This document shows positions 144-62,530 of a DNA stretch of 64,000 bases, one piece after another. The stretch is from Octopus vulgaris (Eukaryota). Position 1 is the first letter of the stretch. Every line of letters begins with the position of its first letter. A program made the translations under genes and the position numbers. The notes below the pieces were generated by a model. It made no database searches, was not told the origin of the DNA, and saw nothing but the letters and a program-made list of their open reading frames with translations. The stretch spans positions 37,882,001-37,946,000 of the forward strand of contig OX597830.1 of NCBI GenBank assembly GCA_951406725.2, in the 5' to 3' direction.

Positions 144-187
<44 letters not shown>

Positions 188-2026
188 AGTACGTGTATGT
201 AGAAGTATGTACTGTGTTAGAGTGCAGGCAAATATATTGTACAAGTCGATAAATCTCCAATATGCCTGAATAGGCACCCAGAGGAAGCATCAGAGCATCG
301 ATTATATGTCAAATATTTTATAAACGGATTCCATGTGATTTCAAATTTATGAGATAACCTTCGATTGTCCCTAATGTATAGAAACACAGAACTCAAATAT
401 ATGTGATTATAGACAATTGCTATTCGCTTCAATTCTAGATTAAAATCTATTTAATTTCCAACCATTCTTTACATTTGATCTAGTACATTTTTCGTGTTTA
501 CTTTTTTAAGCAGGCCGTAAACTGTTATATTGACTTCAAGTGGATATAAAGATTCGATTAGTTTGCTTATGTTGCCGGCACATATTTTCTGACACCGTGA
601 GCTGGGGATTTGAAATATATATAATATGTGAATAGCAATACAAGTAATTTAATCCGACGTATACCATATCTTGTAACTTGCTTCCATCAAATGCTATATC
701 GTTACGAAGTATAGAATTGCATTAACCCATTAGGATATTGTGTTCAACTTTCAAGACAAGGTCTATAACTTCTTTTTTCTTATTTTACAACTATCTACAA
801 GATAATTATCTCTTAATAAGATCAGATTATATAAGTTCTGTTTATCATGAAAAATGAATCTCCCATTCCATCTTCATTATGACAGACTATAACTTCTGGT
901 TCATTCAATGGTTATTTGGAAGTCCTTTTTATATATATAGAAATGTAGGGGAATTACATCTCGTCGCTGATATTCCCTTGAAAATGAATGACTGGAGTCA
1001 ATAGTGGTCTTATTGGTATGCATTGAAAAGATGAAACTTGAAATATCTCCAATTATTAACTGTACTTATCGATCTTTAGCGGTAATTGCAACGTTTGTTG
1101 TATAATCGACAGATATTCCTAGTTATTTCCCGTGAATGACAGATCAGTTTTGGCGCGAGTCAGGTTTGCGTTCACGCCATACCTTGTATGATACTATGAA
1201 ACAACCAATGGTCAATTATGTTTTTTTTTTTATCAACCCAATTTCCATATGTACACTGACATAGAGAAGGACCATAAGCTTTGACGATTGCCGATCGTTT
1301 GTTTTTGTGAACAATTTTGTACCCGAACCATACTTCATTATCCATTTGCTAGCATATCTTCTTTTTTGTCTCGTATATGCTAGCAGATTGTTGTCACATT
1401 CAATGGAACGAGTTCCTAACATTTATAACCTTGTTTGAAATTATATAGTTCCCATGTGGAAACTTATAAAAACAGAAATCTTTTCCATTAAATAGTATTT
1501 AAAGTGCCCTGCATCGAGACTAGCAGAAATAGTTCGCAGTATATTCTATTCCATTCAGATGCAAACATTGCTATGAGGAGAACATAGTGCAACTATTATG
1601 ATGCCTTGGAGGTAATTTCTGCGATATTACAATGAAACTAGAAATAGTTATAATGTAACCTGACCTCAATGGTAATGTTTCTTTCCTTGCTATCAATATT
1701 GAAATTAAACCCGTAAAGCATTTATGCATGTATGTCAAACAGATATAAACGTATTACATCATGTAAAAGAGAAACAAAAATCTAAGCATTTTAAGCTGGT
1801 AGTCAAAATTCATAAAAACATTGCCAGGGTATTTTCAACTAAGAACATTTTCCTGACAGCAACATAATGCAGACACTTCCACACTACTGCTTTTTCTTTT
1901 TGTATTTGCTGAGTAACGCGCATATAGAAATGTATTTTTCAACAATTATAAGACGGAAAATAATGCTGAACAAATTAGGCATTACTTTGTACATCATAAT
2001 ATTCTAAAATTCCTATTCTCTTTGTT

Positions 2027-2200
2027 TTTACACGTTTCAGTCATTGACCTCTGACCACGTTGGGACACAGTCTTGAAGAATTTAATGAAAGATATCGCCT
2101 CCGTACTTGTTATTTTAAGTCTAGTGTTATTCTATCGCTCTCTTGTCGATTCTCTAAGATACAGCAACGTAAACAAACTAATGGTTGTGAAACTGTGAAG
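2027..2200 (-). mobile_element. SINE family A, old 3' fragment
   Basis: Degenerate match to tail and body (gtttcagtcattgac..., attctatcgctctcttgtcga). Confidence 0.55.
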
Positions 2201-2254
2201 AGAAACAAGCTCAAACCACATGCATACATGTGTGCATGTTTATATATGGAGTGA

Positions 2255-2581
2255 CGGGCCTGCCTGACACGAGTTCCGGGCTCAGCTGGCTCTGGCTGAC
2301 AGTACCCGGTATGGGCCCCTATCAAGGGTTACGGAAAGGATACAACCTTCAAAGAAATCCGGAGTGGAGCCCCGAGGCGGTTTAGTGTTCCACTCGACAC
2401 TCTTCCGGCAGCTCCTGCAACCAAGCTGGTGTCTAACGTAATGCTCTGCACTCCTTTGGACTACATCAGCAAGGTCGAGAGAGAAATCCTGACGATTGGG
2501 CTACCCAGGATTCTCTTATTTCTAGCCCAGGCCTGCATAGGAAAACTCCATTATCTCCCGAGACAAAAAGGATGCCGACAG

Positions 2582-2587
<6 letters not shown>
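2255..2587 (+). mobile_element. GC-richer interspersed repeat resembling the 5' region of RTE-type retroelements
   Basis: Sharp GC increase; aaatccggagtggagccccgaggcggtt...ccggcagctcctgcaaccaagctggtg recalled as RTE-like; single copy here, family not verified. Confidence 0.35.
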
Positions 2588-2621
<34 letters not shown>

Positions 2622-2622
<1 letters not shown>

Positions 2623-2850
2623 CTATACTACCCACAAGGGGCTAAACACAGAGGGGACAAACAAGGACAGAAAAACGGATTAAGTCGATTATATCGACCC
2701 CAGTGCGTAACTGGTCCTTAATTTATCGACCCCGAAAGGATGAAAGGCAAAGTCGACCTCGGCGGAATTTGAACCCAGAACGTAGCAGCAGACGAAATAC
2801 GGCTACGCAATTCGCCCGGCGTGCTAACGATTCTGCCAGCTCACCGCCTT
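2622..2850 (-). mobile_element. tRNA-derived SINE family B, full copy
   Basis: A-box tggcagaatcgtt, B-box gggttcaaattcc, core gccgaggtcgactttgcctttcatcctttcggggtcgataaa; tail tttagccccttgtgggtag; multiple copies in the window. Confidence 0.88.
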
Positions 2851-2851
2851 G

Positions 2852-2902
<51 letters not shown>

Positions 2903-3015
2903 GTGTGTGCGTGCGCGCGCGCGCGTGTGTGTATGTATGTATACGTATAAATAAATAAATTTTTCCGCCGATTTAGACGTTAAAGAGATTATTGTATATA
3001 TACACACATACATAG

Positions 3016-3050
<35 letters not shown>

Positions 3051-3076
3051 TATATATATATAATTATATATATATA

Positions 3077-3128
<52 letters not shown>

Positions 3129-3631
3129 TTATATTTAAAAAAATATATATATGTTAATTTATATATCACAGACGAAGGGCTATCACACATTCCCCGTCGC
3201 CCAAACTGAATCACAAGACATAGTTCTTCTTACGCCCAGAGGTGTAGACATTTGCTCACTATGGCATGCACTGGGATTGAACTCCAAACAAAGTGACTGC
3301 AAAGTGAACTTCTTATCCGCGCAGTCATTGCCCTGCCTATATTGGTGTTAATATATTTCTCAGTGAATGAAAACAGTTATAGATTCGATAATGAGGGCAA
3401 TATACATGAATGATTCATATATTTATAAATCAATAGAATAAAATTCTTATAACTACGAAACCCTGTACGGAAACCCTAGATTGTATCTAAAACAAACACT
3501 ATACTGATTTTTTTATGCATATCGCAAAACATTGGCGCCTTACAAACACTGATTTCATGGAGAGTAAAGACTTAAACTGACTCGAACGAGGTCAAACAAA
3601 TATTGAATGAAATATGAACAGAAATCGACAA

Positions 3632-3641
3632 CCTACTACTG

Positions 3642-3723
<82 letters not shown>

Positions 3724-3740
3724 TACTACTGCAACTACTA
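3632..3740. repeat. (CTA)n microsatellite
   Basis: Direct reading. Confidence 0.97.
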
Positions 3741-4294
3741 CCCTGAGTCTCTCACAATATTTCCACATTCATCTGCCAAATGCAATTGAGATACTTGCAA
3801 ATTATGCTTGCTTGCGTAAATCTAAAATGCATGAAAGGTCACAAAAATAAATAAACAGAGGTCATATAATGATCTCTACATATACAGGGTTATAAATTCA
3901 TGTAAGCCAAGTTACATGTACAAATCTATATGGATATGAATATATATATATGTATGTATATCTGTATGTATGTACTTATGTATGTATGTATGTTTATATG
4001 TATGTATGTATGTATGTGTATATGTAGGTATGTATGTATACCTATATATCATAAGCCACATACACACACAGACATATATATGATATATGCCAGTGGGAGG
4101 GTGCATGTTGATATACGTATGGAGTACGCATCCAGCGTAATGAGAATCATTTGAATATAGAATCCATACATTCATGCATACATACATACTTTCATGCATA
4201 CCTAGTTACATGCGTGCAAGCACACGCGCACACACACACGCACACATATAACTATATATGTGTATGTATATATATATATATATATATATATGCA

Positions 4295-4333
<39 letters not shown>

Positions 4334-4667
4334 AGTTTAAATTCATAGAAAACAAAACATGAAGACAGGTGATATACATCCCTCATATATCTCAATCTTC
4401 TAATTTCTTTCTCTCTCGCTTTCTCTTAATTACTTCTTAACACTTACTCAACATACACTCCAAACATATTAATCGCGATACGTCCTTCGTTTCTTCTACA
4501 TCTGAATAGCGCATTTTTCTCTTTCAGCCTCTCCTCTTTGCTACATAGTAGCGAGATGTCTTCCTCAATACATTCCTATATACCTCGGTAGCATACTGAC
4601 TTATAAATTATATATTGTAATTTACTTCCTTCTCTTCCCGTTGCCATTTCATTAATATCTCAAATAT

Positions 4668-4755
<88 letters not shown>

Positions 4756-4834
4756 ATGTACTGTAAGTTTCGAGGGAATAATTGATAAGTTTAAGCACCT
4801 GTATATGCCAGATAGTGACAAAAGTGAGAGAATT

Positions 4835-5170
4835 TATCAAACATAAATTGAAAACAGAACACAAAGGATATCGCGGAATAGTGGCTGAATAGTGGTACAG
4901 TATGGGCAGATTTTTGAAATCTAATGAACTTTTATACAAATATACCTTTTCAAAGAGATACGATAAACCTATTATAATGGGTAATACTACGTGTACTTTT
5001 TTTGTTTTGTGATGTAATCTTTGGACTAACAATTTTTGCGGCTGAAGATGAGCTTTAAACCATTTTTTATATGAATAATATACGTATGCTGATGTAATAA
5101 CAAGGTTGTTTATAAAGCTTGAAACACGTGTACTGCGATATCCTTTGTGTTCTGTTTTTCAATTTATGTT

Positions 5171-5175
<5 letters not shown>
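4835..5175. repeat. 340-bp unit bounded by ~41-bp inverted repeats
   Basis: tatcaaacataaattgaaaacagaacacaaaggatatcgc (4835-4874) is the reverse complement of 5135-5175 apart from one indel. Confidence 0.9.
5038..5136 (+). ncRNA. Minimal type-I hammerhead ribozyme motif
   Basis: Stem I GCGG/CUGC; core CUGAAGA (5042-5048); stem II GAGCUUUA/UAAAGCUU; GAAA (5121-5124); palindromic stem III ACACGUGU; GUA cleavage triplet ending at 5132. Confidence 0.7.
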
Positions 5176-5216
<41 letters not shown>

Positions 5217-5257
5217 TTAAGTAAATAAATATATATTACGAAGTGGCAGAGTATTTA

Positions 5258-5325
<68 letters not shown>

Positions 5326-5751
5326 CATACACCTTTACATAGACCTACACGTATTTCAACTGCACCGATTAGTAACCGTTATGAAAACAATCCCATTACT
5401 ATGCGGTTTCTTCACCGTATTTACTTAATTTGCAGGTATGTGTATTTTTGTGTGCATGTGTTGACCTTCAAACACATGTACAAATGTATGAATGTCTGTA
5501 TGTATAAGCGGTTTTAAGTGCTTAATGGCCATATCGTTTCAAACGACCACTAATTCCTTCCTAATGAATGGGTTTCAGAGATTGTTATTCGGGTTGCCCA
5601 ACCGTTTATTACTATAATTTCTGTTAAATGCTTTAATCAATCCATTTTGGGAACATCCAATTACGACGGAAGTATGTCCGCTTGTGCAAGTTGAAGCAGT
5701 TGGAATTTCCTAGCAAATTACACCTTTCGTCTGTTTCCTGTATATACATAC

Positions 5752-5808
<57 letters not shown>

Positions 5809-5821
5809 TACACACACACAT

Positions 5822-6217
5822 GAGTGGCTGTGTGGTAAGTAGCTTGCTAACCAACCACATGGTCCCGGGTTCAGTCCCACTGCGTGGCATCTTGGGCAAG
5901 TGTCTTCTGCTATAGCCCCGGGCCGACCAATGCCTTGTGAGTGGATTTGGTAGACGGAAACTGAAAGAAGCTTGTCGTATATATGTATATATATATGTAT
6001 GTATGTATGTGTGTGTTTGTGTGTCTGCTGTGTTTGTCCCCCTAGCATTGCTTGACAACCGATGCTGGTGTGTTTACGTCCCCGTAACTTAGCGGTTCGG
6101 CAAAAGAGACCGATAGATTAAGTACTGGGCTTACAAAGAATAAGTCCCGGGGTCGAGTTGCTCGACTAAAGGCGGTGCTCCAGCATGGCCGCAGTCAAAA
6201 TGACTGAAACAAGTAAA
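5822..6217 (+). mobile_element. tRNA-derived SINE family A (internal microsatellite, CR1-like tail), near-complete copy
   Basis: A-box-like tggctgtgtggtaag, B-box-like gggttcagtccc, central (TA/TG)n, tail ggcggtgctccagcatggccgcagtcaaaatgactgaaac; about 10 copies in the window. Confidence 0.88.
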
Positions 6218-6320
6218 TGAAAATAAAGAAAGAAATATATCAAAATAGAGAGAGAAGGAGAGAGACAGAGACAGAAAATAAGATACATGCCTATATACAA
6301 ATATATGTATATATATATGC

Positions 6321-6421
<101 letters not shown>

Positions 6422-6638
6422 TAATCATTAGTATTATTATTAGTAGAAGTGATAGTTGCATTAGTAGTAGCAATATTAGTAGTAGTGGTAGTAGCAGCAG
6501 CAGTGGCAGCAATGGAAAGGACGAGAATTCTGTGCTGTGGCATTTAACGCTCACAATTCTCCGGTCTTGAGTCAATCTCTAACTTTTACAGATTATTTAA
6601 TATGTACATATACATGTGCGTGTATGAGCATGTGTGCG

Positions 6639-6709
<71 letters not shown>

Positions 6710-8048
6710 TATATCATGAGAGACAATGCGTTAGAAATATGAGAAACTATTTAAGGCAAATTGGCGTAAGTACGAAGATACATTATGTCGCATGTATTCA
6801 GAGATATAATCGTTACCATCTTCGGCCTCATTGAACTCACAACTAGAATCGGATTTAATAAAATTAATAATTGACATGACATACATTCCTAAATAATCAA
6901 ATATTTCGAACTGTAGCAATCTTTCCTAATTTTTATCGAGCGTTATGCAGACTTAGAACTGCAATTTCTAATAGAAAAAAAAATTCACGTTTGCCTTGGA
7001 ACGCATGGAAATTCTAGTATAATGATTTTTGATTTCATCGTTTTGTAGGAACATTTATACATACAGATATGGTGTAGTGAACTCACAATAAGTATTTGGC
7101 TACATAATGTTTGATTTCAGATAACCCAATCTCGAGACTTGTGCATTTGTGTGCGCGTGTTTTTGTGTGTTTGTATAATATGTATTTATATGCACGCATA
7201 CATGGGTATTTTTTTAAGTATATATACTGATGTGCATCTAAGTATAGCAAGGAAGAAAGTGGGAAAGAGGAGGAGTGATCGGGCGAGAGAGTGTATGTAT
7301 ATAATCAATGTTGGCATACGACCATATCTGATTCAAAATGGCGCAATATATAGCCGATAAATCGTTCTTTGAAGATATTCACATGTATTCGCATGCTTCG
7401 TTATTGTAGATTTGGTATGTGGGATTTCCAGTCACTTTGCTAAATCTCTTGGAAGCGCGAACTTCTCTCGAGGCTGTGTCCCGTCGTATTCATAAACAAG
7501 TTAGTTAGACACATCTGAATTTTTTTAAATGCGGCCACTGACCCCAAAAGAAAAAGCAGTTAAATTCCCATCAAATAGCACTCTACTGTAGAAAGCTATA
7601 ATGGATAATGTTATAGTAAATGACCTATATACTGTCTCAATCAAACTTCACGACTGTAATTCATTTGGTTATAGCGTTTGCTAATCAGCTTTCACCAATT
7701 TACTATAAGAGTCTCCCATCGTCACCACGTCTGATACCGTCTACATCATGACTGATTAAGAATTAGGGACTGTCTGTGTCTGTTTTTCGTCCTTTTCTGT
7801 AATCAATATTCGTTTTACAGTTTTCCTGTGCATTCATCATACGTTGTCTATTTTTCGTTTGCACATCTACTATAAAAATGTTCAATTATGCATGTATGAG
7901 TGTATATGTGTATGTGTGTGGATACATACATACATACATACATACGTACATACATATATACATACATATACATATACATATATATATATATATATGAAAA
8001 AACAAGTCAAAAATAGAAAATGCTAAAATAATTTTATAGTGAACATTT

Positions 8049-8086
8049 CAGTACCGGTTTCGGTCATTTTGAGACCTTTTCAACTG
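8049..8086 (-). ncRNA. Minimal hammerhead motif, U3-A8 variant (copy 1)
   Basis: CAG-UUGAAAA-GGUC-ucaaaau-GACC-GAAA-CCGGUA-CUG; ACCGGU palindrome in stem III. Confidence 0.62.
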
Positions 8087-8095
8087 TATATATTA

Positions 8096-8720
8096 CTCTT
8101 TTACACGTTTCAGTCATTTGACTGCGGCCATGTTGGAACATCGCCTTTATGCGACGAATTGGACCCCAAGATTCTTTCTTTATAAGCCTTGTACTTATTC
8201 TATCGCTAACTGTTGCCGAACCGCTAAGTTACACGGACATAGACACACCAGCATCGGTGGTTAAGCAATGATAGGGGGGACAAACATATACACAAAGGCA
8301 CAAACACACATAAATATATATACATACATATCTATGTGGCGGGCTTCTTACAGCTTCGGGCTACCAAAGCCACTCACAAGATTTTGTTTGTCCCGAGGCT
8401 ATAGTACAAGACACTTGGCCCCGGAACCATGGGATTGGTAAGCAAGCATCTTATTTACTCCTCACAAGGGGCTAAACATAGAGGGGACAAACAAGCTGAG
8501 ACAAATGGATTAAATTGATTACGTTGTCCCCAGCACGGAACTGGTACTTAATTTATCGTTCCCGAAAGGATGAAAGGCAAAAATCGACCTCGGCGGAATT
8601 TGAACTTAGAACGTAACGGCAGACGAAAGACCGCTAAGCATTTCGCCCGGCATGGTAACGTTCCTGCCAGCTCGCGCCTTGTGTGGTAAGCAAGTTTTTA
8701 CCACACAACCAGGCCTGTGC
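8096..8720 (-). mobile_element. SINE family A, interrupted by a SINE B insertion
   Basis: Reverse-complement match to 5822-6217; head split at 8447-8683. Confidence 0.85.
8453..8680 (-). mobile_element. SINE family B nested in SINE A
   Basis: Matches 2622-2850; flanked by duplicated tggtaagcaag (8436-8446 and 8684-8694). Confidence 0.88.
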
Positions 8721-9166
8721 TTATATATCTATATATATATATGAACGTCATTTATAGTCACCTCCCGACATTTTTTCTCTTTTTTTCTCTTCTACTATTT
8801 TCTTCTCTTCTATTTATTCTATATCCTTTCAAAATTTCTCCCAACATTACCCATTACAATTCGTCTTGGTCTAACGGTCCTTAATGTTTATCTTCATCGA
8901 TTGTTTACTCTGTACGTCCATCCTGTCGTTGTTTTTTCGTTCGAAGCTCTATCTCTCCAGAAATTTTATATTTTAGAACATTTCTATGTGCCGCTTATGA
9001 TGGTTTCGTATCTTGTCGTTGAAAGGTCGAAATAGGGAGCACTATCACAGTCGACATCTGAGGAGGGGTTAGACGTCTCTTGATATTTTGTCTTGTACTC
9101 TTCTTTAATTATGTGTTTACGTATCTTTCACTCGTTGGTGATGTCCTGTTCTTGATGTATTATATA

Positions 9167-10448
9167 TATTGTGTTGGCTATGTTACTCCGTTTTTTAAAA
9201 TTTGAAATTTATTGCGTTTTTAAATTTTGGACTCTATGTTTTGGAGAATTCTGTTTTTGAATCATTTTGAAATTCATTGTGTCTTTTTTTTTCTTGTTAA
9301 TTTTAGTTAATTTTTGTTTTATATCAGATCATTAAAATGTAATTTCAAGTTAAGAAGAACGAGCATTTTCGACACCTCGTTATAAGGTTATAAGGCCGCA
9401 AAAGCGGCTCGCGATATTTGTGCTGTGTATGGAGAGAGTTCCATAGCTGAAAGAACCGCTCATGATTGGTATGCCAAGTTCAAATATAGAAATTTGGGCC
9501 TCAAAGCCTCACCCCCATTCTGGCCGTCCAGTTGAGTTCAATCAAGAACGATTAAACTAAATGTTGCATGAAAATTCTCGTCAAACAACGAGGGAACTGG
9601 CAGAGAAAATGGAATGCTACCACACTGCTATAGTGAAGCATCTTCACTCGATGGGAAAGGTTCAGAAGTATGGAGCATGGGTTCCGCATGCTTTAAGTGA
9701 CAACAACAAAAATCAATGAGCCACAATATTCGTTTGTTTGCTTACTAGTTACCGCTCAACTCAGGGACACGAGCAACGAGTTATTTACAGAATCGGTACT
9801 AGCGACGAAAAATGGTGCCTGTACATCAATATGGAGCAACGTAAGGAATGGTTTAGTCTCTGTAAAGAAACCATACCGCACATGAAACAAGATCTTCAGC
9901 CGCGTAAAACAATGTTGTACGTATGGTGAGACTGGGAAGGGATTATCCATTACGAATTGCTTGAACGGAACCAAACGATCAACGCGGAACTCTATGTTCA
10001 ACAGATGGAACGACTCAACACGGCTATTCAAGAGAAAAGGCCTAAACAACAGTATGGAGATCTGCTGCACGACCACGCCCGCCCTCATATCGCCAATATG
10101 AGTAAGGAAGTCATTTAAACGTATGGCTGGGAAGTGCTGCCGCACCCGCCGTACTCTCATGATTTTGCACTAACGGATTTCCACCTCTTTCGATCTCTTT
10201 CAAATGCTAATCGCGGAGTTTCGTTCAATACTGATGCAGAATTGAGAGCTTGGTTGGATTAATTTTTCGAGTAGAAATCGGGTGATTTCTGCCAACGAGG
10301 TATTGAAATCTTGGGAAGAAAACATTAGGAAGAAGTTGTAAACAACAAGGGCGAATACATTATTGATTAATTATTTGTTATGTTTTATTAAACCTTTTAA
10401 AAAATTTAAATATACAAAAGCGGCGGGAACTTAGTTGCTAACCTAATA
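9167..10448 (+). mobile_element. Full-length but defective mariner DNA transposon (~1.28 kb)
   Basis: Degenerate TIRs (tattgtgttggcta... / ...ttagttgctaacctaata) flanked by TA; transposase remnant inside. Confidence 0.9.
9337..10370 (+). pseudogene. Mariner transposase pseudogene
   Basis: Reads AARDICAVYG..., SGRP, WVPHAL, TSDEKW, LLHDHARPH, HPPYSHDFALTDFHLF (WVPHEL, DD34D and YSPDLAP motifs) with several stops and frameshifts. Confidence 0.92.
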
Positions 10449-10727
10449 TAGATATATAAATATATGTGCATATTAGTTACGAGAGCCATTACAATCAAGG
10501 TATATCAACATATAAAACGCTATTTCAGATATGCGTTCATGGTTCATAAAAAAATATTTCCATAGTTTTCAGATGCAAGGGATAATATTCCTTTTGTATG
10601 AGATCCTGGTAGCAGTTAGCAGGTAGTAGTAGTAGTACTAATGATATGAATTGTTGGTTTTGATTTTTGAAGCAGTAGTAGTAGCTGACAAAGGAGGAGA
10701 CGAAGAAGTAGAATACTCTCTCTTTTT

Positions 10728-11008
10728 CTCTTTTACTTGTTTCAGTCATTTGACTGCGGCCATGCTGGAGCACCGCCTTTAATCGAGCAACTCGACCCCG
10801 GGACTTATTCTTTTGTAAGCCCAGTACTTATTCTATCGGTCTCTTTTGCCGAACCGCCAAGTAACGGGGAAATAAACACACCAGCATCGGCTGTCAAGCA
10901 ATGCTAGGGGGACAGACACACAAACATACACACATACATATATATATATATACATATATACGACAGGCTTCTTTCAGTTTCCGTCTACCAAAGCCACTCC
11001 TGCGCCTA
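10728..11008 (-). mobile_element. SINE family A with most of the tRNA head deleted
   Basis: Tail and body match 5822-6217; ctaccaaa joined directly to gccactcctgcgcct. Confidence 0.85.
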
Positions 11009-15905: not shown

Positions 15906-16016
15906 TCTGTAGACACACATATACACACATATCTTATTCTTTTAGTCTCTTAGCAATATCATCTCTAGAGGTGTGGCTATGCTGGGACACCGACAGTACA
16001 CACATGCACATATACA

Positions 16017-16181
16017 TAGGTGTAGGAGTGGCTGTGTTGTAAGAAACTTGCTTCCCAACGGTATAGTCCCGTGTTCGGTCCCACTGCATGATACCTTGGG
16101 CAGGTGTCTTCTGCTATAATCTTGGGACGACCTAAGCCGAGTGAGTGAATTTGGTAGACGGAAACTGAAAGAAACCCGTCG

Positions 16182-16225
<44 letters not shown>

Positions 16226-16227
16226 CG

Positions 16228-16259
<32 letters not shown>

Positions 16260-16452
16260 CTTGTGTGTGTGTATGTGTGTGTATATTTGTGTGTGTGTGA
16301 TGGTGTGTTTACGTCCACGTAACTTAGCAGTTCGGCAAAAGAGACCGACACAATAAGTGGTAGACTCACAAAGAATAAGTCCTGGCGTTGATTTGTTCGA
16401 CTAAAGACAGTGCTCCAACATGGCCGCAGTCAAATGACTGAAGCAAGTAAAA
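16017..16452 (+). mobile_element. SINE family A
   Basis: Colinear match to 5822-6217. Confidence 0.85.
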
Positions 16453-17019
16453 AAGTAAGAAAGAATAGACATACAATCACACACAAACACACAAACACAC
16501 AAACACACACACACACACACACACACACGTATATATATGCTTCATGCTCACCACATATATAGAAACTAATACTTCTCATTGGTTTAGTCTTTTATTCTTT
16601 TATACGTTTCAGCCCTGAGCTTGTGGCTATAATCAGAGTAATGTTCGAAATATTTTGTATTCCATCTTAGTTGGCTACTTTTCTAATTTACTCATTTTTT
16701 GCATTGCTACTCGGTTAAATACAACTGGAAGCAATGCAGTTAATTCCAGGAAGCTCAGTACATTCATACCGCAAGTGTTAAGCATACCCAGGCGTATATT
16801 TAAGTAGGAGTGTATAAAAAGTTAACACCAACGACCTATTTTATCCTCGACTCTACCATTACCAAGATTTCTCCGCCTTCATCTGCGTAGATTGTTAATG
16901 AACAACCTTAAAAATAAGTAATTAATATCACGGCCTTTGATCGTTTCTTTTTTCTTGTGTCGCTCCTTCTCCTCATTCTTCTATTGTTTCCCCTGCTCTT
17001 CCTCTTTCACTTTCTCCTT

Positions 17020-32975: not shown

Positions 32976-33410
32976 CAGGTATTAGATGTAAGTCTTTGAT
33001 ATATGTTCCAAACTTATACAGAATAGAAATGAGGACAGCAGTTAATATTTCTAAAAGTTTACATAATGTATTCTTCATTCTTTAGAGTTGCAAAAGACCC
33101 AAGAAAATATTATCAATTGTCTTATGCTTATTGCTAGCTTTATTAAGGGAATGTTACATCCATAAAGCAATCATTTCGTATCTATTTCTTCGCCACAATA
33201 ATATCTTTCTATAGGGCCGATGGTTCTGCATATCCATTTTAAAGTGTGGTGTCCATAATAATCCGTACCTTCTCTCGTGTACGTACTAGCCAAAGTTTTT
33301 GTTTCTAAGCACGTGTTCGCATGTAAACACACTTCAAATGTCGCCATGACCGATTCTGCATTTCGCCATCTCCGGGACGGTAAAATATATATAAGTTATC
33401 GTGTATATAA

Positions 33411-33462
<52 letters not shown>

Positions 33463-33653
33463 ATGTTTGTGTATGTATGTATGTATATATATATATATAT
33501 ATTTATATATATAAATACATATAAATATATATATATGATGACCCAAAATACAGGTAAGGCTATGTAAGTGGTATGGAAGGAACGCTATTAGACACCCAGT
33601 TCGATAATATCATGAGTGACGAAGGTAATGCGGTCGTGTGTGATCGTATATAT

Positions 33654-33853
33654 GTGAAATAAAATGAGACAACAGAGCCAAGGCACCGTGAATTTTCTAG
33701 GACATTTATAAAGAGAAAGGTAGTCTTACAGCTGTTTCAATGACTACTTAGAGAAAGGTATTCATTGAAACAGATGTAAGACTACCTTTCTCTTTATAAA
33801 TGACCTGGGAATTTCACATTGCGTTGGCTTTGTTGCCTCATCTTATTTAACAC
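33654..33853. repeat. ~200-bp fold-back (about 90-bp inverted arms)
   Basis: catttataaagagaaaggtagtcttacagctgtttcaatga / tcattgaaacagatgtaagactacctttctctttataaatg, extending outward with mismatches. Confidence 0.92.
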
Positions 33854-36289
33854 ACACATACACACACACATTTAGATATCAATACATATACACACATATC
33901 AACATTAGAGAGTTCTTCTGAAGGATTTCCTTATCTGCTCTAGTATTGGGCTTTCAATATTTTCTTTCAAGTCTCTTCTATGTTCTATGGGTAGTTTGAT
34001 GGTTTCGAAATTTGTAAAATTTGTATCTCTTTCAAAGTGGTCATATGGTGGCACATTTGTATATGTTTTGTTCTTCTGCCACATATCTCACATTGCAGAC
34101 TTAATATACTAAATGCTCTCATTAAGTACTTCGGGTTTTTCTTCAATATATTATAAGATCATTTCTCCGTGACAAATATTAATCTACCATTGCACTTTCA
34201 TCGGCTATACATTTCTCTTCTCGTCTATTTTTCTGTTGTGGTTGAAAGCTGAACATGTTTGCTCGTGAATGCATTACTTCATACTCTGCAAGCAACGGCC
34301 GAGTATATAATTTACAATCAATGCTAGTCCACTGCATTGAATCGAAAAGATTCGCAAGCGCGCTATTTGATTAGGAAAAGCAAATTTATTTCACCTTTTT
34401 TCTCGCCATTTCCTATGCATTTCTTTTTCTAGAATCAAATCTCCTGTTTCTAGCATTTGCAGCATCAGGTAGACTGTTTTTATTTTTACTTATATCAGCG
34501 AGTTATAAGCAGAGAAAGAAAAACTTTAAAAACTGCTATAAACAAAAATTGTGTTGTATAGAGATTATCACTTGTAAGAAACGAATGAATAAAAAATAGC
34601 GAGTTCACTGATATTTTGTTAGCAACGTTTTTTTTTTAATTTGCGATAGAAGACTTATAACTGAAGTTTGCATAAAAGCAATAAAATCAAGATAAAAAAT
34701 AAGCATTATAAATATTTTAGAAACCTAAGGAAAATAGTTTAATGGCGTTATCGTAGCTATGTAATATATTTTACACTTAAAATACTTTTTATTTGCATCT
34801 AATATAGAGCAATTGGCATACGCTTTATTTTTAACGCAATTTCACCAAAAGTATTTGTTTATACATAAATTTAATTTTTCTGATAGTGCAAAGAAAATAT
34901 TCAGCAATGCTGCTAATTTTTATACCAGGGTTTCAAATATCAAATACCCGCAAATTTAAAGAACATCAATTCTTAAAACACAACATATTCTTATAAAAAC
35001 TTATATAAATTCCAACATATGTATAAGCAGTTACAAAAATGTTTGTCATTTACAAACATTTATGTAATTGCAATGAACAATAAATTCTATTCTTTTGTTT
35101 GGAGACAAATGTCTACAATTAACCAATGTAGATTCTACAAAACTTATACTGCCAAGTCTTTGTTTTTGAAAACTAAAATGATAGAAATAATTATATTCAA
35201 ATCATCCATTATAGTGTCCGCAAATTTAGTCTTCTTTCCTCTTGTAAATTATTATATAGCTATTCTGCAATTAAAATACTCTATTCAAAAGCAAAACATA
35301 ATACGTATGTTTATCAAATGGACAAATTGAGATATTAACCGCTGACAGATACTAAAACCTGGTTTGTGTCGTGATCCGAGTCATTCGATTTCAATAGATG
35401 CTATTAGGCAATTATATCCGATAAACGCAATTGCCTTATTCGTGTATCTTTCGGATTTAACATCAAATAAAATATCTATTGCACTTTTCAACTCTATTAA
35501 CTTCATATCGATAGCAATATATAATTACTTTGGTTTATAAATATCATTGATATATAATTGACAAGTATTTCTAGGAATTTTATTCTATACGTTATTTTAA
35601 CAATTTCTTTCGATATACCGGTATATAATAGTCGCAAATGGGAGATAAACACGACATGGTACGGAATTAATTTAATCACGGATTTTACTCTTATCTTTCT
35701 TAGTTGTTAGCTCATATATTGAATATGCCATATCATTATGCGGTCAATAACATAATGATCAAGTCTAGAGTGGATTGCTAAATTCATTTGTTACCTTTCT
35801 TACAAATTTTAGGCTTTAAGCCAAAGTATAAAATCGATTACAGGACCTTTTATCTTGCATTAATAAAGCAATATAAATTAATTTATTCTGAGTGAATGCC
35901 AATACCTTCCATTCTTAATTAAGGTATTGTAATTGAAGATATTTTGTGAGGAGCAGCTGACATTGGATTTTAGTTTCCTACACCTATAATGCGAAGGTCT
36001 CATTTCACCTTCAAAACTTGTGAAATTAACAACAGGCGAATATCAAAAATCAATTTTAGTGATTTTTGTGTCCTCTACAAAAATTAATGTGTTGATGAAG
36101 CATCGGGTTTCATATTCTTCACAGGATTCCAAACATCACAAACAGGACTGTTTCCCCCCTGAATAGTGTATCTGCGAGGCCATTACACGATGTGGCTTCC
36201 AATTGTTTTTTTAATAATAGTGGATATTTGGCTACAATCGCTAACTTATTGACAGAGAGTTCAGAACCTGGTGTAGAAACTAAAAGAAA

Positions 36290-43271: not shown

Positions 43272-43589
43272 TTTTTAGTAAAACACCTACGCAAATTCCA
43301 TAAACAAACCTTTCAATAGAAATATTCTCCTGAATTGAACCGCAACTGCTAGCCGTCACTGACCATTCAAAATACGACAATCAAGGCACTCCCAAATTTT
43401 TCCACCCCCTCTCCTCATCAACCTTCTTCTTCTTCTACCCTACCAAGAATTCACAACGACCTCGAAAACACAAGTGCAAACAAGGGAGACAGAGAAAGGC
43501 AGAATGCCACTTATATTTGAACACTATACAAATATTCCTTTAAAAAAACTTTTCTTTTAATTTCTCTAAATTTAATTATTTAATCGTTA

Positions 43590-43627
43590 CAGTTGAAAAG
43601 GTCTCAAAATGACCGAAACTGGTACTG
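43590..43627 (+). ncRNA. Minimal hammerhead motif, U3-A8 variant (copy 2)
   Basis: Identical to 8049-8086 except one base in stem III; the downstream ~55 bp is also shared. Confidence 0.6.
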
Positions 43628-49945: not shown

Positions 49946-50069
49946 AATGGAATAATATGCATATATATAATATGTGACAATTATTCCGTAGCCATGATAA
50001 AACTCCGTGTTTTATCATGGCTACCGAAAAATTGTCACATTATATTTACAAATAAATTCCTCTATTTAC
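49940..50069. repeat. ~130-bp fold-back, 5-nt loop
   Basis: atgtgacaattattccgtagccatgataaaac-tccgt-gttttatcatggctaccgaaaaattgtcacat, extending outward imperfectly. Confidence 0.9.
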
Positions 50070-59169: not shown

Positions 59170-62100
59170 GATTGATTGATTGATTGATTCTAGTTTCAGC
59201 TTATGAGCTGTGGCCATGCTGGGGCACCGCCATTTGGTGTTGCTACTTGGTTTCACTTCATGGAGGCTTTCTAGCAACTGCTATTTGGTGCATGAGAGAG
59301 TTCGATGCAGCTGCCCTCATCTGCCCCTCCTGCTGTGAAGTTGGTTCATCTGGGACACCTGACAGGAAGAGATCCAGCTTCATTTTAAAGACATCTGTAT
59401 CCACCCCATGCAGGTCTCTCAGGTTCTTCGGGAGGATATTGAAGAGCTGTGGGCCTCGGAAGCCCAGGCTATCACAGAATCTTGTCCTACATCTTGATGG
59501 CAGGTTTGGAGTCCTAGGCACCACGCAGTGGCGCCCAGTTCTGGCATTTGCGTAACTCTCGATGCCAAAGTTCAGGACACTTCCCTCCAGGATCTTCCAG
59601 ATGTATATTATGGCATATCTTTCCCGCCTACGCTCCAGGGAATATAATTTTAATCTCTTGAGTCTTTCCCAGTAGCTTACATTCTGCATAGAGGCTATCT
59701 TCTTTGTGTAGCTTCGTTGGATCGCCTCAAGTTCTGTGATCAACTTGACACTGGATGGTGACCATAGCTGAGAGCAATAGTCAAAGTGGCTTAGGACAAG
59801 TGTCTTCCAGAGGACCATCATGGTTTCTTGTTCTCTTGTTCTAAAGGTTCTAAGAATCCATCCAGCCAGCCGTCTACATTTCATTGTCAGTTTAGCAACA
59901 TGTACATGAAAGGTCGCGTCATCACTCATGTGAATACCCAGGTCACGCACTGATTGTGCCTCTGGGATTGCAATCCCTCCGGGTCCAGTGTATTCATTGG
60001 GTATTGCATTCAGTTTTGCATGCTGATAGTATAAAGCTTGAAACTTTCCAGCATTGAACTGCATGCTATTCTTTTCAGCCCACTTGTATATTTCGTCCAG
60101 CTCACATTGCAGGTGTTTAGTGTCCTCAGGGTTCTGTATTGCTTGTGAAACTTTTGTATCATCTGCATAACTTGTGATCGTGGCTCTCTGCGTGGCTGAG
60201 GGCATGTCTGAGAGGGCCATTATGAACAGTAGTGGTCCCAGAACAGTGCCCTGCGGAACACCGCTCACTATTTGTGTGTTAATGGAGGTGGCCCCATTGG
60301 CTACTACCACCTGACTTCTATCCTTCAGAAAGTCATGAAGCCATTCTCCCAGTTTTCCAACTATGTTGAGATCACGCAGTTTGTGACATATCATTCCATG
60401 ATCGACTTTATCAAAGGCCTTTGCAAAGTCGAGATATATCACTTCCACATTTGAGTGGTTGAGCAGCCGTTTCAGCACCCAGTCATAGTGTTGTAGGAGC
60501 TGAGTTAAACAGCTTCTCCCTGGTCGGAAACCATGTTGGGTGTCGGGCAGCAAGTCATTCTCTTCAAGGAAGGTGATCAGCTTCCTTCTGACTATTCGTT
60601 CCATGACCTTGCTGATGTGTGAGGTCAGAGAGATAGGTCTATAGTTCTTGGCTTCCGCTCTGCTACCTCCTTTATGAATGGGGCATATTTTACCTTCCTT
60701 CAGTTTTCCTGGAAGTTTGCCAGCTGCAAGGAAGCTCTGAAAGAGGAACTGCAGTGGTCTTGCTAGGACTCTCTTACATGCTTTTAGGAGGATTGCCGGG
60801 AATCCATCGGGGCCAGTAGCTGAGTCTGTTTTCATTTCATCTATAGCCTTGGTTACATCGTCTTCCTTTATATCGATGTAATCTATCGTCGCCGCCTCTG
60901 ATTTTATATCTGCAGTGGTAAAAAAGTCAGTTGGATTGGTGATTTGGAGATGCCCAAGGGGTGGAGTGAAAACACTCTTGAATTGCTCATTCAGTATTTC
61001 ACTTACCCTCATTGGTTTTCCTGTAAGTGTGCCATCCTTTTCAAGGAGTGGCCCTATTCTACAGTGCACTGTAGCTGTTTCTTTGGCATACCTGTAGAAA
61101 GCTCTGGGGTTAGATTTTATGTTTTCTATAGCCCAGGCTTCTTTGTCTGCTCTTTCTTTTTCATGGGAGAGTTGCAGACATTTTTCGATTTCCAACAGTT
61201 TTATTTTTAGGCGGGACTTTTCACTGCTTTCAATCTGTTTGTTTAGGCGATTTGAAAATTTCGTACGCCGTCTCATTAAAATTTTCCTCTCTCTGGGGAT
61301 TTTGTTCTTGTGTACAGTGGCCTTTCTCTCTGGGACACATTTGTAGCATATGGCTTGCATTACAGACATGAATTGTTGAAGTTTCACGTCGATGTCTGGC
61401 GAGGAGAGACATTCAGGCCAGTTTTGTTTGAGGATCTCTTTCTCAATTTGTTTCCAGTTTGCCTTATGGTAGTTCAAGCTGGAAAGATTTTGAGGGTTTC
61501 TTGTAGGCTGCATGTCCGTGCTCTCTTTTGGCCCGTACATGGTCAGCTCTATCATGTTGTGATCCGAGAGTAGTGTCGGTGTCACTTTCACATTATGGAT
61601 GAGATCCATGTCATTTGTGAAGCAGAGATCCAGTGTGTTACCTGCCCTGGTTGGTTGGAGTATTACCTGCTCCATGTACAGGGTGTTGATGAGGTTCAGG
61701 AGGGACCTCGCCTGTCCTCGTTCACATCTTGTCATTCCTGGGAGAGAAAGGCCCTCGGGCCATCTGACATTGGGCAGATTGAAGTCTCCCATAAGAAGCA
61801 CACCTATGTGTTGTTCTAATGTGGTTAGAATTTCTTCTATTTTTATAAGGCAGTCTTCGAACTTGCCCACATGGCTTGGGGCATCTGGAGGGCGATATGT
61901 AGCACACACAACTACATCAAGTTGCCTAATATGTACAATTAGTGTGTCACACACCGAGTTTGAGTATGACAAGAGGACCTGGGGTGTGAGGTCCTCACGG
62001 ATGTACATAGCAACACCTCCATGACTCCTTTCTTTCCTGTCGGTCCGTAGTACAGCATACTGTGGTATGTGTAACTCCGCATCTGCTATGTCCGGTTTCA

Positions 62101-62274
62101 GGTGCGTTTCTGTAAGTGCTATGCATAAGGCTTGATTGCATGCAACAAAGTCTCTCAGGAACGGGATCTTTGTCCTGTTACTGAGTGTTTGCAGTCCTCT
62201 GATGTTCAGTAGGAGTATCGAGGTGAGGTGTACGTTGTTGCCGGCGGTGTCCATCCTGTGGACACCGCCGGCAA
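59170..62274 (-). mobile_element. 5'-truncated CR1-group LINE copy (ORF2, short 3' UTR, (AATC)n tail)
   Basis: ORF2 as above; short 3' UTR with a CAGCT-CATA-AGCTG stem-loop, ending in (AATC)5 at 59170-59189; no ORF1 upstream; GC content clearly above the flanks. Confidence 0.93.
59258..62254 (-). CDS. LINE ORF2 (apurinic endonuclease + reverse transcriptase), CR1-group non-LTR retrotransposon, uninterrupted 998 aa
   Basis: APE motifs LLLNIRGL, IALTETHL, GGVAMY, GDFNLP, PTRAGNTLDL, SDHNMI; RT motifs NYRPISLTS, QHGFRPGRSC, YLDFAKAFDKV, GVPQGTVLGPLLF, YADD, RDLGI; CR1-type C-terminus SYWERLKRLKLYSLERRRER. No stops or frameshifts. Confidence 0.97.
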   Translation of the reverse strand: MDTAGNNVHLTSILLLNIRGLQTLSNRTKIPFLRDFVACNQALCIALTETHLKPDIADAELHIPQYAVLRTDRKERSHGGVAMYIREDLTPQVLLSYSNSVCDTLIVHIRQLDVVVCATYRPPDAPSHVGKFEDCLIKIEEILTTLEQHIGVLLMGDFNLPNVRWPEGLSLPGMTRCERGQARSLLNLINTLYMEQVILQPTRAGNTLDLCFTNDMDLIHNVKVTPTLLSDHNMIELTMYGPKESTDMQPTRNPQNLSSLNYHKANWKQIEKEILKQNWPECLSSPDIDVKLQQFMSVMQAICYKCVPERKATVHKNKIPRERKILMRRRTKFSNRLNKQIESSEKSRLKIKLLEIEKCLQLSHEKERADKEAWAIENIKSNPRAFYRYAKETATVHCRIGPLLEKDGTLTGKPMRVSEILNEQFKSVFTPPLGHLQITNPTDFFTTADIKSEAATIDYIDIKEDDVTKAIDEMKTDSATGPDGFPAILLKACKRVLARPLQFLFQSFLAAGKLPGKLKEGKICPIHKGGSRAEAKNYRPISLTSHISKVMERIVRRKLITFLEENDLLPDTQHGFRPGRSCLTQLLQHYDWVLKRLLNHSNVEVIYLDFAKAFDKVDHGMICHKLRDLNIVGKLGEWLHDFLKDRSQVVVANGATSINTQIVSGVPQGTVLGPLLFIMALSDMPSATQRATITSYADDTKVSQAIQNPEDTKHLQCELDEIYKWAEKNSMQFNAGKFQALYYQHAKLNAIPNEYTGPGGIAIPEAQSVRDLGIHMSDDATFHVHVAKLTMKCRRLAGWILRTFRTREQETMMVLWKTLVLSHFDYCSQLWSPSSVKLITELEAIQRSYTKKIASMQNVSYWERLKRLKLYSLERRRERYAIIYIWKILEGSVLNFGIESYANARTGRHCVVPRTPNLPSRCRTRFCDSLGFRGPQLFNILPKNLRDLHGVDTDVFKMKLDLFLSGVPDEPTSQQEGQMRAAASNSLMHQIAVARKPP

Positions 62275-62276
62275 TA

Positions 62277-62530
62277 TAATAAACGCGCTCTTTGAAAGCC
62301 TAGCCAGGCTCATGGGCCCGGTTTCCCGGTTTCAATGGCGTATGTCTTCCCCAGCTCGACGGGATTCCAGTCCATCGCAGCGTTACTCATTTTTGCCAGC
62401 TGAGTGGACTGGAGCATCGTGTAATGAAGTGTTTTGCTCAAGAACACAACGCGTCGCCCGGTCCAGAAATCGAAACCACAATCTTACGATCATGATGCTG
62501 ACATCCTAACTACTAAACCACGCGCCTCCA

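Follow-up and report, generated by a model that had tools for sequence, protein, structure and literature searches.

The imperfect palindrome at positions 33654-33853 of the window, as we call the whole stretch of 64,000 nucleotides of Octopus vulgaris DNA analysed here, is real, and its arms are stubs of a high-copy repeat that is present in all three DNA sequencing runs compared, under three organism labels. We regard the locus as a head-to-head pair of stubs of this hammerhead-bearing repeat and consider it likely, with some reserve, that the pair is the dead product of one Penelope-like pLTR insertion that ended in fold-back.

Anatomy of the inverted pair

The two arms (33651-33739 and 33766-33854) match at 76 of 89 ungapped pairs, with a single mismatch among the inner 37, and the RNA of 33640-33870 folds at -125.1 kcal/mol (z = -20), a value equalled by none of 200 shuffles. 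The inverted arms of about 90 bp that the first-pass annotation had placed here are thus confirmed. Read outward, both arms give GAAAC-AG(C/A)T-GTA-AGAC, that is GAAAC, a palindromic stem III, GTA and AGAC, and the earlier reading of each arm as the 3' half of a minimal hammerhead with palindromic stem III is upheld by the arm sequence and by the relatives described below. The central hairpin reported at the same time (aatgactac...gtattcatt) is present at 33739-33766; alone it is weak, with a DNA fold of -1.9 kcal/mol that 24 of 200 shuffles equalled. The locus is made up as follows.

33404-33539, no strand: (TA)/(TG) microsatellite beside the long copy, judged from its sequence to be the likely insertion target
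33540-33739, minus strand: long copy of the hammerhead-bearing repeat, about 200 nt, 5'-truncated at the foot of stem II and comprising the left arm and an extension of about 110 nt
33540-33650, minus strand: one-sided, 'tail'-like 3' extension found in a minority of family copies, the tail reading being drawn from the available parts of PMC8557442 and PMC3846280
33727-33738, minus strand: hammerhead 3' half of the left copy (GAAAC, palindromic stem III, GTA triplet), with the would-be cut between 33727 and 33726
33740-33765, no strand: 26-nt junction composed of AT, a shortened 14-nt arm motif, its mirror (13/14) and AT
33766-33853, plus strand: short copy, which forms the right arm, 88 nt, with the same 5' truncation base as the left copy and ending at the commonest family end
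33767-33778, plus strand: hammerhead 3' half of the right copy, with one stem III change, at 33774
33851-33900, no strand: (CA)-rich flank past the short copy, recognised from its sequence

In the window copy a complete hammerhead core in cis is absent: there is no CTGANGA box near either arm, and a hammerhead descriptor scan gave 0 matches at the palindrome. Among the best 150 of 339 Rfam matches (E up to 5) none fell on the palindrome; these 150 were microsatellites matched to microRNA models and one match to a viral UTR model. The DNA of the window is rich in microsatellites and of animal type, its GC content being mostly 29-40%, and within its 64 kb there is no second copy of the palindrome.

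Part of the stretch was contained in 20 of the 24 sequencing runs listed, and none held half of it. Contigs of four of the 24 runs were compared with 33545-33994 at 80% likeness, the small-share runs X10 and X12-X20 being left out. Three of the four are guessed to be DNA, namely X1 (organism A), X8 (organism D) and X11 (organism F), and the fourth, X7 (organism A), is guessed to be RNA; as this is only a guess, X7 is not counted as evidence of expression. One contig of X1 is identical to 33829-33994, with 0 differences, and none of the contigs listed spans the entire palindrome. An artefact of assembly in which one arm was folded back is disfavoured, because the arms differ at 13 positions. 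Of the arm differences 3 in 42 are inner and 8 in 41 outer, a contrast that is not significant (Fisher p = 0.12), and homogenisation of the arms near the centre was rejected on this ground. In X8 one contig agrees with 33880-33994 save for 3 differences, and it starts 51 letters earlier, at offset 33829 where the X1 contig ends, which suggests that organism D may share the insertion; in X11 the unique flank is uncovered, which proves nothing.

The left copy extends well past the arm. Each of the four runs shows a drop in depth at 33650, of about 9- to 13-fold, yet cover persists to 33545, and single contigs of X1 and X8 cover 33551-33737, so that the left copy is about 200 nt long. In the three DNA runs the depth of the extension is 160-10,000, against 11,000-146,000 for the arm. 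Family loose ends before 33551 match the window sequence down to 33540, and their consensus in X1 (14 contigs, agreement 0.68) contains a short inverted pair at the point where the copy in the window breaks off, which hints weakly at a start site with a stem-loop. Family copies also finish in GT/CA repeats, as X7 shows with one contig whose loose end lies before 33650 and one before 33653. The two ends of the locus are not adjoined by a target duplication; its flanks share simple-repeat words only, and microsatellites can hide a duplication.

An abundant repeat family with a whole hammerhead

The comparison matched 1,040 contigs in X1, 783 in X8, 955 in X11 and 31 in X7. Summed depth over 33710-33724 reached 68,331 (X1), 145,610 (X8) and 53,916 (X11), whereas the unique right flank has a depth of 15-24 in X1 and X8; summed depth is not a copy number, and it is the contrast with the flank that marks a very abundant repeat. 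Most contigs align to the left arm, which is nearer to the family majority than the right arm. The main family end lies about 89 nt past GAAAC, so that the hammerhead sits close to the repeat's 3' end, and by arithmetic on contig ends most family copies end about 105-110 nt from where stem II starts.

Homology between the family and the window ends at 33738/33739, where the loose ends listed number at least 118 and 89 in X1, at least 78 and 70 in X8, at least 83 and 57 in X11 and at least 5 in X7, with an agreement of 0.74-0.79 in the three DNA runs and of 0.74-0.82 across all four. On the GAAAC strand their consensus reads TCT, CTGATGA, one base, GGGATAT, a 5-nt loop, ATATCCC, one base and then the GAAAC of the arm. 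Since the loose ends supply TCT-CTGATGA and stem II, the family has the whole minimal hammerhead: the CUGANGA box lies upstream of stem II in family copies from all four runs, and GAAA, palindromic stem III, the NUH triplet and stem I are found in family copies as well. The family TCT can pair with the AGA that follows the GTA triplet, giving 3 bp of stem I within the 30 loose letters. The search proposed earlier for non-palindromic relatives with GTCT-CTGANGA upstream was therefore positive, with TCT-CTGATGA read and the predicted G lying beyond the 30 letters shown. The bases that flank the 7-bp stem II are alike (A/A or T/T) in both consensus lines, which as column consensuses may blur such positions. 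Stem II of hammerheads is usually closed by a G10.1-C11.1 pair directly next to GAAA. Given the like bases at this place, the family may have an atypical or inactive ribozyme.

Contigs of all four runs carry recurrent deletions (of 7, 1 and 3 letters) at window positions 33716-33722, and these point to subfamilies that vary just past stem I.

The family is non-palindromic, and the centre of the locus (33740-33769) has a depth of 80-267, less than 0.5% of that of the arm core (54,000-146,000). As almost no family depth covers the centre, no MITE-like family shows, and there is no support for a spread, as a unit, of the MITE-like palindrome suggested in the first-pass annotation; the low depth is not proof against a MITE because assembled contigs handle palindromes badly. 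The count of palindromic copies that had been called for thus stands at one in the window, and is backed by the centre depth to the extent that contigs do not drop palindromes.

A pattern scan of metagenome contigs returned six loci that share only 20-25 nt with the pattern, which is the level of chance, and the same scan of viral and prokaryote genome contigs returned 0 matches. Several of the metagenome contigs hold imperfect palindromic repeats of about 190-200 bp, several per contig (L003 687-877, L004 1306-1514, L005 1318-1508 and L006 486-694); these are unrelated, MITE-like repeats in which the pattern matched at the end by chance. Neither the family nor palindromes broken at stem II are reported in the literature searched, which included few subscription papers, and the family's 16-nt core is absent from the papers searched. 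The repeat is apparently an as yet undescribed, very abundant, hammerhead-bearing family.

The junction and the origin of the pair

Both arms break at the identical base, which lies at the foot of stem II to within one base, and the window copy has neither the 5' box nor any of stem II. As CUGAUGA and stem II are gone, neither stub alone can form a hammerhead core. The first-pass annotation had placed the central hairpin where stem II would be; this did not hold, as stem II of the family is GGGATAT/ATATCCC and is absent from the window copy, and the hairpin was rejected as stem II. What lies between the arms is instead derived from them. The right half of the junction (33740-33765) mirrors the 14-nt motif that follows the cut site in the arm at 13 of 14 positions; the left half repeats this 14-nt motif with six bases missing, and AT flanks both halves. 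An exact junction-arm match of 11 nt was equalled by 26 of 20,000 shuffled junctions, and the local score of junction against arm by 2 of 3,000 random segments of the window. Adding six bases restores a perfect mirror, of which 22 of 28 nt are present, and the ancestral junction was probably such a perfect mirror whose tip was trimmed later. The 14-nt motif may have come from a short fold-back, or from a long family stem I that was joined after the 5' core had been skipped; for a short fold-back the priming homology is limited to one paired base, and shuffled sequences do as well as the hairpin at 33720-33747 (z = 0.05).

We propose that reverse transcription was primed at a nick in (TA)n and began in the extension, and that uncleaved RNA served as the template, as copying runs 12-13 nt beyond the cut site. 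The reverse transcriptase would have halted at the 7-bp stem II, and the strand would have gained 14 nt that mirror what it had just synthesised, through a short fold-back or a skip across the three-way junction. It would then have formed a hairpin at its tip and copied the arm back to the common 3' end of the family, six bases of the tip being lost later while the arms diverged by about 15%. The shared break base and the restorable mirror of the junction are what fold-back of a single strand predicts. The snap-back synthesis at stem II that was suggested from the first reading is a reasonable origin as regards the fold-back, whereas its pivot lies in the arm-copied junction and not in stem II. 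None of the 13 joints listed changes strand, so no second fold-back copy was seen, and a single junction cannot show a preferred stop.

An inverted, 5'-truncated copy that adjoins head to head and an extension at one end only are traits of Penelope-like insertions, and both are found here. No reverse-transcriptase or GIY-YIG gene is tied to the family, and the window has no ORF that combines the two. A 58-aa minus-strand frame that is open in both arms matched no retroelement protein among 1.84 billion proteins; the two matches to this frame, an RCC1/Cin1-repeat protein and a short repetitive protein, were rejected as unrelated and repeat-inflated. Membership among the Penelope-like elements rests therefore on anatomy.

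In a different course of events, two separately primed cDNAs, one from each nicked strand and each with an RNA of its own as template, would have grown toward one another and stalled at stem II, after which repair would have linked them and added a templated insertion. In the available part of the study of an Anolis element, the protein cleaves and extends both strands, with a predicted dimer and two start sites (PMC11167929), and in our locus the 3' ends of the two stubs differ and the arm differences lean outward, which speaks for two cDNAs. As noted, the lean is not significant, and the junction is mirror-symmetric about the axis of the arms, a symmetry that end joining need not yield; we consider this course unlikely.

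It is also conceivable, and in our judgement distinctly improbable, that a longer head-to-head insertion with two complete hammerheads later lost its centre through resolution of a cruciform or hairpin tip, the gap being filled from the arm. In unstable palindromes the loss is expected to be symmetric and the tip to be templated and trimmed unevenly, which counts in favour of such an event. The accessible text of PMC4209133 also reports minimal hammerheads that occur in twos, on opposite strands and 100-700 bp from each other. Loss of the centre nevertheless leaves unexplained why the cut falls within one base of the boundary between stem II and GAAA.

The parent might, with the fold-back otherwise alike, have been a non-coding hammerhead repeat, either a non-LTR retrozyme or a SINE-like unit, in place of a coding Penelope-like end. 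No coding sequence is linked to the family, one frame having been searched, and the part available to us of a recent preprint argues that retrozymes are non-autonomous pLTR derivatives (bioRxiv 10.64898/2026.07.22.740005). We give this parentage little credence, since the 7-bp stem II fits the Penelope-like minimal type and not the canonical 4-bp stem II (PMC4209133, in part), and the window contains no tandem unit, so that the retrozyme trait of tandem, complete type I hammerheads is lacking at the locus.

An ordinary MITE derived from terminal inverted repeats, or a MITE-like palindrome that spreads as a unit, would suit the size of about 200 nt and the near-complete self-complementarity, and palindromic repeats of DNA transposons do exist, such as the heavily edited frog Harbinger (PMC5625713, in part), but with a non-palindromic parent family, the low depth of the centre, a left copy that outruns the arm by 110 nt and ends that adjoin no target duplication, we regard it as very improbable. 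The likeness to frog Harbinger MITEs is that of a self-folding unit of about 200 nt that would be an ADAR substrate if transcribed; unlike them, the palindrome is apparently a single event.

Relation to known elements

Comparisons in this section refer to those parts of the cited papers that were available. Inverted pLTRs with a one-sided tail and head-to-head junction palindromes have been read as the result of self-priming (PMC3846280), an inverted 5'-truncated copy is typical of Penelope-like elements, hammerheads lie near their 3' ends, and microsatellite targets can hide the target duplications of their insertions (PMC8557442). The fold-back pair resembles the inverted pLTR copies described by Arkhipova et al. 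2013 (PMC3846280) and Craig et al. 2021 (PMC8557442) in its head-to-head copies, its junction palindrome and its extension at one end, and also in the likely microsatellite target, the lack of a clear target duplication and the hammerhead near the 3' end. It differs from them in that no ORF lies between or beside the copies, that the extension is about 110 nt as against published one-sided tails of 30-40 bp, and that the junction is a mirrored copy of a 14-nt arm motif. The arrangement as such is an already published Penelope-like insertion structure.

The ribozyme of the family can be set beside the minimal hammerheads of metazoan Penelope-like elements (Cervera and De la Pena 2014, PMC4209133), which have a helix II of 7-8 bp, an unpaired base 5' of helix II and a small palindromic helix III, and which are mostly single truncated motifs, some occurring as pairs on opposite strands. 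The family shares with them CUGAUGA, the base before stem II, the 7-bp stem II, GAAAC, the small palindromic stem III, GUA and a stem I of at least 3 bp; unlike them, its consensus has one more unpaired base, which separates stem II from GAAA, and the window copies are without the entire 5' half. Poseidon PAc, an element of Anolis (Frangieh et al. 2024, PMC11167929), has been described as initiating internally, 111-118 nt away from where stem II begins; its template RNA is uncleaved, the DNA is AT-rich and both strands are extended. Our family is similar in how far the main 3' end lies from stem II, in the likely AT-rich target and in the uncleaved template that we infer, whereas the ORF of PAc starts at stem II and no coding frame is confirmed here.

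The window contains other elements of related kinds. A second, unrelated minimal hammerhead occurs at 8052-8089 (minus strand) and 43579-43612 (plus strand), in copies that are 92% alike over 101 nt; it is a U3-A8 core variant with TTGAAAA, a 4-bp stem II and GAAAC-CG-GTA, and a U3-A8 core variant has been described (PMC4209133). It gave one descriptor match as compared with 0 in 40 shuffled windows, the other copy having missed the palindrome filter by one change. A shorter, second palindrome at 49962-50048 (DNA fold z = -11) has TA-rich flanks and a GAAA..GTC motif outside its centre, and may be another fold-back stub. SINE-like repeats are present in several copies (5794-6234, 10717-10999, 15998-16465 and others), some of which end in a small hairpin followed by GAAAC..GTA, resembling a hammerhead 3' half without the 5' box. 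A 1,013-aa uninterrupted frame at 59258-62299 (minus strand) with AP-endonuclease and reverse-transcriptase domains belongs to a LINE and is not Penelope-like.

For now, the locus is a single old insertion, of a type already in print, and its hammerhead repeat family is very abundant and apparently undescribed. If transcribed, it would form a hairpin of about 88 bp as a by-product, and the dsRNA suggested at the first reading would depend on such transcription. The role of the hammerhead in Penelope-like elements and the origin of their inverted ends are stated to be open questions in the available parts of PMC8557442 and PMC11167929. If many junctions of the family turned out to end at this boundary of stem II and to carry the same 14-nt insert in mirror image, they would amount to a directly countable record of fold-back; the one copy at hand only suggests where. 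As a tentative extension that we hold to be rather unlikely, the folded, uncut ribozyme itself might set the site of the inverted copy, by arresting the reverse transcriptase at the foot of stem II, with a skip or snap-back over the three-way junction and a hairpin to follow, so that the stubs would share one break and could supply ADAR substrates. If this is true, arrest set by the ribozyme would be a structural, non-catalytic role of the hammerhead in Penelope-like insertion.
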